NCBI RefSeq assembly: GCF_003334255.1
Contig: NZ_QOWU01000050.1
Length of the DNA: 42,065 nt
Reading direction: 5' to 3' (one strand)
DNA from: Escherichia coli
GTDB taxonomy: Bacteria > Pseudomonadota > Gammaproteobacteria > Enterobacterales > Enterobacteriaceae
A program made the position numbers and the translations under genes. This document shows positions 6,440-11,800 of this stretch, one piece after another; the first letter of the stretch is position 1, and every line of letters starts with the position of its first letter. Below the pieces are notes generated by a model. The model worked only from the letters and a program-made list of their open reading frames with translations. It was not told the origin of the DNA and made no database searches.

Positions 6440-8722
<2,283 letters not shown>

Positions 8723-8776
8723 GTAACACCTACCTTCTTAAGTGGATTTTTTATTTACTGCGTACTTCGACAACCA

Positions 8777-9634
8777 TTAATGGTGGTCGTTTTCACGCAG
8801 GTAAATGACCCAGTATGTCAACCCAACCAACAAACCACCACCGATAATGTTGCCGATCGTAACCGGAATCAGGTTATCAGTGATGAAATTCATCACGGTC
8901 AGGTGAGAAAAATTTTCCGGTGCAGAACCGACTGCGGTCCAAAATTCCGGGGATGCGAAGTCGCGGATTACAATACCCATCGGGATCATAAACATGTTTG
9001 CGATACTGTGCTCAAAACCGCTGGCAACAAACATCGCGACCGGCAGCACCATAATGAACGCTTTGTCCATCAGGCTGCGGCCAGAATAACTCATCCATAC
9101 TGCCAGACATACCATCAGGTTTGCCAGGATACCAAGACAGACGGCCTCAATAAAAGTATGGTGCACTTTGTGGTCGGCGGTTTGTAGGACGTTTAGTCCC
9201 CATTGACCATTTGCGGTCATATACTCGCCGGAAAGCCACATTAAAAGTACAAACAGCAGTGCGCCGACCAGGTTGCCAAAATAGACATTTAGCCAGTTTT
9301 TCGCCAACTGACCCCAGGTGATGCGCCCACTCGCCTTAGCAACAACAATCAACACGGTGGAAGTAAAGAGATCGGCTCCGCAGACAACACAAAGAATCAG
9401 CCCCAGAGAGAAGCAAATGCCGCCAACCAGTTTTGCCATGCCGAAGGGCATTGTGCCTGTGCCAGTGGTTGCTGTGATATAGAAGACGAATGCGATTGAG
9501 ATGAAAACACCGGCGGTAATCGCCAGATAGAAAGTCTTAAGCGGATGTTTCGTTGCTTTATAGACACCCGCCTCTTCGGCCACTTTGGCCATTGCAGCAG
9601 GAAGTAAAAGATCAAAAGGGTTGTCAGCTTTCAC
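8777..9634 (-). CDS. focA: formate channel FocA (formate/nitrite transporter family)
   Basis: 285-aa membrane protein; I place the start at the GTG at 9634-9632 (translation MKADNPFDLLLPAAMAKVAEEAG...), preceded by an aagagagag Shine-Dalgarno. A GTG start for focA is established; the longer TTG-initiated ORF to 9808 is rejected. Confidence 0.85.
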   Translation of the reverse strand: MKADNPFDLLLPAAMAKVAEEAGVYKATKHPLKTFYLAITAGVFISIAFVFYITATTGTGTMPFGMAKLVGGICFSLGLILCVVCGADLFTSTVLIVVAKASGRITWGQLAKNWLNVYFGNLVGALLFVLLMWLSGEYMTANGQWGLNVLQTADHKVHHTFIEAVCLGILANLMVCLAVWMSYSGRSLMDKAFIMVLPVAMFVASGFEHSIANMFMIPMGIVIRDFASPEFWTAVGSAPENFSHLTVMNFITDNLIPVTIGNIIGGGLLVGLTYWVIYLRENDHH

Positions 9635-9694
9635 ACTAACTCTCTCTTTATTAAGTCGGCGACGAGATACTAACAAAGCATTATAGATGAGAAA

Positions 9695-9708
9695 TTGATA
9701 TAGATCAT
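9695..9708. promoter_or_regulatory. FNR-like site TTGAT-ATAG-ATCAT in the focA-pfl control region
   Basis: 9/10 match to the FNR consensus TTGAT-N4-ATCAA, centred about 67 bp upstream of the focA GTG; the pfl operon is known to be FNR-activated from promoters upstream of focA. Confidence 0.5.
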
Positions 9709-10039
9709 ATCTCGCCTGGCTTATAGGCCCGTAACTCGCATGGTTTTTATGCAAATACGGAGTAAATATTTGATTATCCAAATAAAAATAAATTTTAAAA
9801 ATTAACAAATGAGTTGAATTTTTTCCGCATCCTCCGCTAAAACAGTTAATTAAAAGGGAGCATCAGGCGAATAAAGTAACAATATCGATCGTATTTATTA
9901 AATACAAATTACCGATATTTAACCTTATAATTACAATTATTTTATTAATGCAAATATATGTAAAGCGGGGCATTAAAAAAACGCCCCGTAATATAACTCA
10001 GACTAATCATTAAGCCTACATTGCGTAGGCTATTTGATT

Positions 10040-11800
10040 TTATTTTGCCCAGAATGCTGCTTTGGCGCGCTGCAGCTTTTCGTAGGCCTTCAACAACGAC
10101 TGATGTGCAGCAAACGCGTGCAGATCGCTATCTACCGGTTGCAGGCCGTAAAACGCCGCTTCGCCGCTCATTGCCGCACTGGCGGCTTCTACGGCATCTG
10201 CGCCGTACATGCGAACAAACGCATTCAGATATTGCAGCGGCTGGCGATCTTCTTCCTGTGCCAGTAATAACAACGTTTGCAGGCAGCGATAATAGTTGGC
10301 GCGTTCCGGACTAAATACTGATGAGTTAAACTCCATCGTCCATTCGGTCCAGACCAGAGCCTGTTCCAGATCGCCACCAGCCAGCGCCAGCATGGCTTTT
10401 AATTCACCGATACGCAGGGTGTACCAACCGTTATCCGACCCGGTCGCCAGACCCAACAGCTCACGCACGCGGGTAAAGTCATCAAAACCTTCTTCATCCA
10501 GTTGCTCGATGAGGTTCAGGTAATCTTCTTTTTCCCACTCGCTGCCTGGTAGCGAAAGAATCGTTTCACGTAAATGGCTGCCCATACTGTTATTCGCGAG
10601 CCACAGATCTTCAGCCGGATAAATATCGGACATGCCAGGCACGATAATACGGCAAGCATAAACGCCCAGATGCTCGTAATCGGCAATATAAACTTCTTTA
10701 TCTTCTTTGTTGAAGATAGCCATCAGTGTGGCGAACTCTTCTTCCGTGGTGCCGGAGAAATTCCAGTCCACAAACGGATAATCGGCATCCTGCTTGAACA
10801 GGTCCCAGGAGATTAAACCGCTGGAATCGATAAAGTGCGTTTCGAGGTTGGTATGTTCAGCGACTTCTTCATCATCGAAGGTTGGCGGAGTAAACACATC
10901 CAAATCTTTCAGGCCACGACCTTGCAGCAGCTCGGTCACGGTACGTTCCAGTGCTACGCCAAAATCAGGATGCGCACCGAAAGAGGCAAAGCAGGTACCG
11001 TTAGCAGGATTGAACAGTACCACGCAAATCACCGGATACTGGCCGCCAAGCGAACCGTCATAAGCGAAGATTGGGAAACCCTCCGCTTCCAGCGTTTCGA
11101 TGGCTTCAACTACTGCTGGGTAACGCGCCAGCACGTCTGCCGGGATCTCTGGCAGGCTGATGCTTTCAGCAATAATGCGGTTTTTCACGTAGCGTTCGAA
11201 AACTTCAGACAATCCCTGAACGCGTGCTTCGTTGCGGGTATTACCTGCGGACATACCGTTGGAGACGTACAGGTTACCAATGATATTCATCGGAATATAA
11301 ACGGTCTGATTGTCGGACTGACGCGTAAACGGCAGGCCGCAAATACCACGATCTTCGTTACCGGATTGTAGGTCAATCAGCATGCTGCCGGTCAGTTCAT
11401 TCTCCGGATCATAAAACGCGCGCAGACGGTCATCGAGCAGCCCTTCTGGCACATCGTCATTTTCGGTCAGTGGGAACCATTTTTCGTTGGGATAATGCAC
11501 GAACGGACCGTTGGCGATGGTTTCGCCCAGCCAGAAGTCCGCAAAAAAGTAGTTGGTTGAGAGACGCTCGAAATATTCACCGAGTGCAGAAGCCAGCGCC
11601 GCTTTCTTGGTTGCGCCTTTACCGTTGGTAAAACACAGTGCGCACTCTTTGTCGCGAATATGTACAGACCAGACGTTAGGCACGGGATTCAGCCAGGAGG
11701 CCTCTTCAATCTGAAAGCCGAGGTCTGAAAGTTTTTGCTGGAAGCGAGCGATGGAATCTTCCAGAGCGGCATCTTTGCCGGGGATAAATGTTTGCGTCAT
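10040..11800 (-). CDS. ycaO: YcaO-domain protein (ATP-dependent amide-activating family; ribosomal S12 methylthiolation accessory factor in E. coli)
   Basis: 586-aa ORF starting MTQTFIPGKDAALEDSIARFQQKL; matches YcaO. The TTG-initiated 11-codon extension in the ORF track is rejected. Confidence 0.9.
   Translation of the reverse strand: MTQTFIPGKDAALEDSIARFQQKLSDLGFQIEEASWLNPVPNVWSVHIRDKECALCFTNGKGATKKAALASALGEYFERLSTNYFFADFWLGETIANGPFVHYPNEKWFPLTENDDVPEGLLDDRLRAFYDPENELTGSMLIDLQSGNEDRGICGLPFTRQSDNQTVYIPMNIIGNLYVSNGMSAGNTRNEARVQGLSEVFERYVKNRIIAESISLPEIPADVLARYPAVVEAIETLEAEGFPIFAYDGSLGGQYPVICVVLFNPANGTCFASFGAHPDFGVALERTVTELLQGRGLKDLDVFTPPTFDDEEVAEHTNLETHFIDSSGLISWDLFKQDADYPFVDWNFSGTTEEEFATLMAIFNKEDKEVYIADYEHLGVYACRIIVPGMSDIYPAEDLWLANNSMGSHLRETILSLPGSEWEKEDYLNLIEQLDEEGFDDFTRVRELLGLATGSDNGWYTLRIGELKAMLALAGGDLEQALVWTEWTMEFNSSVFSPERANYYRCLQTLLLLAQEEDRQPLQYLNAFVRMYGADAVEAASAAMSGEAAFYGLQPVDSDLHAFAAHQSLLKAYEKLQRAKAAFWAK

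Follow-up and report, generated by a model that had tools for sequence, protein, structure and literature searches.

Where does translation of focA begin, and which elements of the DNA upstream control it? The locus sets the amount of the formate channel relative to pyruvate formate-lyase in fermentation, and changes in the spacer in front of focA have been selected in the mouse gut (PMC5094792). We analysed a stretch of 42,065 nucleotides of Escherichia coli DNA (henceforth the window), in which the following features frame the question.

8777–9634, minus strand: focA coding sequence, 285 codons plus stop, for a formate channel of the FNT family; the RefSeq CDS in two E. coli records
9632–9634, minus strand: GTG initiation codon of focA, opening V/M-K-A-D-N-P-F and matching the RefSeq CDS
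9635–10039, minus strand: AT-rich ycaO-focA intergenic control region, 405 bp, GC 0.309 against 0.505 for the whole window

Positions 8468–10268 are, base for base, positions 953300–955100 of E. coli MG1655 (NC_000913.3; subtracting 944832 from an NC_000913.3 coordinate gives the window coordinate). A 1.4-kb query around the focA start, under which lie ycaO, focA and pflB, matched 5426 of 5426 complete E. coli genomes at 95–100% identity. The end of ycaO is at 10040 and the start of pflB at 8722. FocA residues 1–285 are 100% identical to crystallised E. coli FocA (PDB 3KCU), and the PF01226 domain is present in its relatives. The preliminary description of this DNA spoke of a strongly AT-rich intergenic region of 405 bp; both the length and the composition were borne out by measurement, the GC fraction falling as low as 0.29 in 200-bp windows of the spacer, and published H-NS ChIP-chip intervals overlie the spacer when mapped onto the window.

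The stretch does not differ from the focA-pflB (pfl) regulatory region of E. coli K-12, and the published K-12 coordinates of the FNR 14-mer, the ArcA site, three transcription starts and the GTG all match. We have little doubt that we are looking at the native regulatory DNA of the E. coli focA-pflB operon together with its translation start. Coordinates, conservation and the agreement with published ChIP, transcription start and toeprint data are given below as observed. Each element flagged in the preliminary description had already been mapped at exactly this locus, so that the description was correct but ordinary; what is new here is comparative only, namely how widely a non-AUG start is kept, the contrast between half-sites and spacer in the FNR box, and the synonymous constraint in codons 1–8.

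The GTG start codon of focA

The frame of focA is open upstream of the GTG as far as a TGA at 9865, with in-frame TTGs at 9808, 9781, 9754 and 9676, and further in-frame starts follow downstream (ATG at 9592, codon 15, and GTG at 9583); judged by the sequence only, the start could therefore lie at any of several codons. For comparison we used 80 of the 588 FocA relatives in our genome scan, all of them close relatives, whose loci were located with six search patterns; one of these was the N-terminal peptide itself, which introduces some sample bias into the counts that follow. The start codon was GTG in 79 of 79 Enterobacteriaceae species (fetched with FocA as query), and the 16 bases AGAGAGAGTTAGTGTG were invariant in all of them.

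Translation could in principle start further upstream, at one of the four in-frame TTGs. The mechanically defined open reading frame does begin at 9808 (343 amino acids), and FocA calls of 325–398 residues exist in databases. The comparison nevertheless leaves this reading with next to no chance of being right. In 20 of the 79 species an in-frame stop lies 5–13 codons before the GTG with no ATG, GTG or TTG between, making the GTG the earliest start available there, and the FNR box stands 74, 75 or 76 nt away from the GTG depending on the species, a variation of 1–2 nt by which any upstream frame is broken. The conservation upstream has no codon periodicity, and the proximal transcription starts at 9671 and 9661 are located downstream of all the candidate TTGs.

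The opposite possibility, that ribosomes bypass the GTG and use the in-frame ATG at 9592 (Met15) to make a FocA of 271 residues, has in its favour a canonical start codon and the 271-residue calls made by some annotation pipelines in public databases (P0053, P0061 and P0075). We consider it very improbable. Residues 2–14 are kept as protein while the third positions of codons 9–14 vary, the alignment of a Vibrio FocA in the PDB begins at residue 3–4, and no SD-like sequence precedes 9592. Outside the Enterobacteriaceae, GTG was found in Edwardsiella, Yersinia ruckeri and one Erwiniaceae genome, and TTG in Serratia, whose FocA has Thr instead of Met15 and still keeps the N-terminal peptide behind the TTG. 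The downstream ATG is thereby excluded as a general start, and the conserved feature is the non-AUG codon.

With stops upstream in 20 of 79 species, no Met15 in Serratia and transcription starting past the upstream TTGs, the conserved N-terminus leaves no room for a start elsewhere. The earlier proposal that the GTG at 9634 is the only start fitting MKADNPF... thus holds, in line with the RefSeq annotation. The focA GUG was, reportedly, identified by mutagenesis. Experiments in a 2025 30S-seq preprint also speak against Met15: 30S subunits gave a toeprint in the region of the focA start only with initiator tRNA (tRNAi), and mutation of the SD next to the focA start abolished 30S binding and focA-lacZ expression.

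In public protein collections, near-identical focA genes carry FocA calls of 398, 325, 353, 359 and 271 residues (P0001, P0008, P0009, P0012, P0053, P0061 and P0075), one cluster of 398-residue proteins having 4963 members. Automatic gene callers often overlook the focA GTG. The practical use of the comparison is as an annotation check, the GTG-initiated FocA of 285 residues being the correct form by comparative evidence.

The FNR site and the proximal promoters

Three overlapping or adjacent elements lie just upstream of the GTG.

9695–9708, unstranded: FNR binding site TTGATATAGATCAT, centre 9701.5, at -40.5 from the 9661 start
9671–9685, minus strand: overlapping second promoter, start 9671 (-37; preprint legend), putative -10 TATAAT at 9680–9685
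9661–9672, minus strand: core of the proximal FNR-dependent promoter, start 9661 (-27 from the GTG; preprint legend), putative -10 TAGTAT at 9667–9672

The 14-mer had been pointed out as an FNR-like site with a 9/10 match to the consensus, and the score against TTGAT-N4-ATCAA is indeed 9/10. As a bare motif it does not stand out: across the whole window, matches with at most one mismatch numbered 3 against 1.8 expected, which is no enrichment, and the reality of the site rests on its position, its conservation and published ChIP data. One might accordingly read the 14-mer as a functionless chance match in AT-rich DNA, the window-wide count being like that of the shuffles. Within the 405-bp spacer, however, only 3.9% of dinucleotide shuffles produce a match. 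The site moreover coincides exactly with published data: Myers 2013 (PMC3688515) names focA-pflB as directly FNR-activated, counts two sites of which the top one is at -40.5, and places a ChIP-seq peak at 953741, and Table S6 of the same work lists the exact 14-mer TTGATATAGATCAT at 953750 (U00096.2), which is 9695 in the window. Together with that site, the FNR ChIP-seq peaks at 953741 and 953746 fall at 9686–9695.

The pattern of conservation also argues against chance. Among the 79 species the ATGAT half-site is invariant, the other half is ATCAA in 76 and GTCAA, one base off, in the remaining 3, and the 4 bp between them occur in six forms; this combination of conserved half-sites and variable spacer extends over 83 genomes, the site being kept in four more distant genera outside the Enterobacteriaceae. 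Given in addition its position at -40.5 of a mapped start, a chance match is hardly conceivable, and the published ChIP-seq and expression data effectively refute it. We thus retain the 14-mer as the FNR site of focA, identical to the Myers Table S6 site. The comparison with mapped promoters that the preliminary description had proposed gave agreement for the FNR site, the transcription starts and the ArcA site, which all fall on published coordinates.

The stretch 9661–9672 was invariant in 76 upstream sequences, as was TATAAT at 9680–9685, and from their spacing TAGTAT and TATAAT would be the two proximal -10 elements. The promoter that starts at 9671 is presumably P6A. A σ70 ChIP peak that increases anaerobically maps at about 9640. 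The two overlapping promoters start transcription at 9671 and 9661, and under anoxia FNR binds TTGATATAGATCAT 40.5 bp upstream of the latter, the geometry of a class II activator in direct contact with RNA polymerase.

In these respects focA resembles the class II FNR promoters of dmsA, narG and yfiD, where the site lies near -41.5: the inverted repeat is at -40.5 of a mapped start, and anaerobic σ70 recruitment and FNR-dependent activation are common to both. Simple class II promoters differ in organisation, since the focA region is compound: another promoter overlaps the first, with its start 10 bp further upstream, a distal one is present in addition, and ArcA and probably IHF input would be needed. 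A consensus promoter scan recovered only an unrelated TTTACA/AATAAT pair at 9964–9936, missing the real activator-dependent promoters.

The distal part of the spacer

Further upstream the spacer holds four more elements.

9763–9775, minus strand: IHF core-like AATCAAATATTTA, a perfect match to WATCAANNNNTTR, which contains TTGAT at 9770–9774
9831–9835, minus strand: upstream SD-like GGAGG within the ‘focA-213’ 30S binding site (30S-seq preprint)
9894–9947, minus strand: ArcA-P site of four direct repeats (953949–954002 in U00096.2; Park 2013 supplement)
9982–9995, minus strand: distal promoter, start 9982 (348-nt leader, -348; preprint TSS 954814 in NC_000913.3), putative -10 TATATT at 9990–9995

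A second TTGAT in the spacer had been described as an FNR half-site at 9769–9773. The pentamer is present, at 9770–9774, and its sequence context suggests that it is better read as part of an IHF core than as an FNR half-site. An A/T tract, TTTAAAATTTATTTTTATTT, precedes AATCAAATATTTA, and AATCAA-N4-TTA is found at the same distance in 55 of the 79 species with a variable N4. IHF is reported to be required for pfl (Sirko 1993). Judged by its match, the segment 9763–9775 would be the IHF element of pfl, and would probably bend the DNA that joins the distal to the proximal part of the region. No IHF ChIP-chip interval is given between 945214 and 956981 in Table S4 of Myers 2013 (PMC3688515).

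The competing interpretation of this TTGAT is a remnant of a second FNR site. Table 1 of Myers 2013 (PMC3688515) counts two FNR sites for focA-pflB, and the ATCAA pentamer is conserved. The partner half, however, is ATTTG, which brings the mismatches to five in total, the centre of the 14-mer would lie at about -115 from the 9661 start, not an activating position, and Myers Table S6 gives the 9695 site alone; the perfect fit to WATCAANNNNTTR, the A/T tract upstream and the conserved TTA arm with its variable N4 likewise favour IHF. We therefore hold a second FNR site to be improbable and keep the IHF-type reading. No other FNR 14-mer with fewer than 3 mismatches was found in the spacer, and none at -41.5 of the 9982 start.

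The ArcA site sequence given by Park 2013, TAATAAAATAATTGTAATTATAAGG..., is identical in the window and lies under the ChIP peak at 953965; ArcA-P binds these four repeats at 9894–9947. The invariant AGTTAATTAA at 9844–9853 was at first taken as the ArcA box, a place that belongs to the published ChIP-seq site at 9894–9947 instead. Park 2013 also lists a second, weak ArcA ChIP peak, ‘focA1’, inside focA at window position 9491 (about 953546 in U00096.2), with no predicted site.

Transcription also starts at the distal promoter, at 9982, with TATATT at 9990–9995 as its likely -10. The distal promoter block is conserved across species, and an anaerobically increased σ70 peak maps onto the window at about 9977. 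Within the operon, the preprint table places pflB starts at 9093 (within focA) and 8757 (in the focA-pflB spacer), and these further starts fit the multi-promoter description. The view of focA-pflB as an operon under anaerobic control from several promoters is accordingly sustained by the starts at 9982, 9671 and 9661, the FNR and ArcA sites and the additional pflB starts.

Two hairpins follow the ycaO stop on the minus strand (9966–10031), AGCCTAC-GCAAT-GTAGGCT at 10031–10013 and CGGGGC-N11-GCCCCG at 9988–9966, and the distal focA start at 9982 falls within the second. An Rfam scan of 8600–10200 (E ≤ 1) gave nothing beyond a sub-threshold DapZ match over these ycaO terminator hairpins (9958–10034), which scored 25 bits (gathering score 56) and was treated as a chance hit. 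In one complete E. coli genome, KFu015 (L087), a 768-bp IS1 is inserted in the ycaO-focA spacer with a 9-bp target duplication of 9972–9964, between the distal start and the ArcA site. IS insertions upstream of focA have been described as adaptive in the mouse gut (PMC5094792).

The GGAGG at 9831–9835 is of another kind, as it acts on translation. In the 2025 30S-seq preprint the site carries a 30S-seq signal and a toeprint that is independent of tRNAi, and its mutation lowered expression about 10-fold. It matches the upstream ribosome binding sites (uRBS) of that study in lying about 200 nt upstream of a weak translation initiation region, in binding 30S without initiator tRNA and in raising expression about 10-fold. 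At focA only the long transcript from the distal promoter carries this motif, and the two proximal leaders, of 27 and 37 nt, do not. Its conservation among enterobacterial lineages is incomplete: a G-rich SD-like motif 200–209 nt upstream was found in most but not all species, being absent, for example, from some Klebsiella/Raoultella and Kluyvera. On the long transcript this 30S-binding GGAGG would partly offset inefficient initiation at the focA start.

Two almost invariant blocks, at 9841–9857 and 9806–9822 on the minus strand, flank the variable upstream SD. Their sequences are CCATTTTAATTAAC, which contains AGTTAATTAA (plus strand, 9844–9853), and AAAAAATTCAACTC, both outside the published ArcA ChIP-seq site. 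An ATG abutting the GGAGG opens an 11-codon reading frame, MRKKFNSFVNF* (9795–9830, minus strand), which is not conserved because the ATG is ATT in one E. coli strain (L003) and is absent in other species.

Strength and conservation of the translation initiation region

Immediately around the GTG two features bear on how efficiently focA is initiated.

9640–9646, minus strand: weak SD-like GAGAGAG, best duplex with the 16S 3' end (anti-SD) about -4.9 kcal/mol
9631–9636, minus strand: out-of-frame GUG with UGA directly after it, sharing bases with the true start (gtGTGa); read from the sequence, with the decoy GUG at -2

The purine-rich Shine-Dalgarno mentioned in the preliminary description exists, as GAGAGAG, the only SD-like sequence before the GTG, but at about -4.9 kcal/mol it is a poor one. 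The out-of-frame GUG and its stop lie in AGTTAGTGTG, which is invariant across the 79 species, and the GUG-UGA start-stop at focA is described in the supplement of the 30S-seq preprint. A separate study counts focA among annotated gtGTG genes and assigns it no SD as long as 4 nt (PMC9841429). As an annotated gtGTG start, focA is like the gtGTG and AUGUG ambiguous initiation sites described there, and differs from them in that its upstream GUG directly precedes UGA, so that out-of-frame initiation yields no peptide. An RNA structure that would mask the start was sought in the 27-nt leader with the first codons, whose fold is, if anything, less stable than that of shuffled sequence (z = +1.38); a hairpin hiding the start codon was discarded on this value.

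Translation of focA thus begins with the GTG at 9634, preceded by a poor SD, and this SD together with the overlapping out-of-frame GUG-UGA would make initiation inefficient. The authors of the 30S-seq preprint likewise consider focA initiation probably inefficient. The further suggestion that the weak start keeps FocA low relative to PflB is plausible, being consistent with their comment and with the retention of a non-AUG codon across the Enterobacterales. Differential decay of the focA-pflB transcript is documented as an additional cause of the FocA:PflB ratio, and pflB-specific transcripts contribute as well.

The beginning of the gene is also constrained beyond what the protein demands. 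In 75 sequences, third-position entropy is lower in codons 1–8 than in every other 8-codon stretch of focA, 0.05 bits against a mean of 0.99 (sd 0.28), so that the constraint acts on the nucleotides. One could go further and regard the start region as a selected translational throttle that fixes the FocA:PflB ratio independently of transcription, in which the GUG-UGA decoy could divert a set fraction of the initiating ribosomes. Three observations invite the idea: a non-AUG codon (GTG; TTG in Serratia) kept across at least four Enterobacterales families, the decoy in all Enterobacteriaceae genomes sampled, and codons 1–8 almost without synonymous change as the most constrained stretch of focA. 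We offer it tentatively and think it rather doubtful as a whole; the features are published singly, and any role of their joint conservation in fitness would be hypothetical.

The second strongest island of synonymous conservation in focA covers codons 268–281 (8792–8836), with an entropy of about 0.23–0.3 bits against the same mean. The pflB-proximal start at 8757 follows 35–80 bp downstream, and the island may serve within the coding sequence as a promoter, an activator element or an element of RNA processing.
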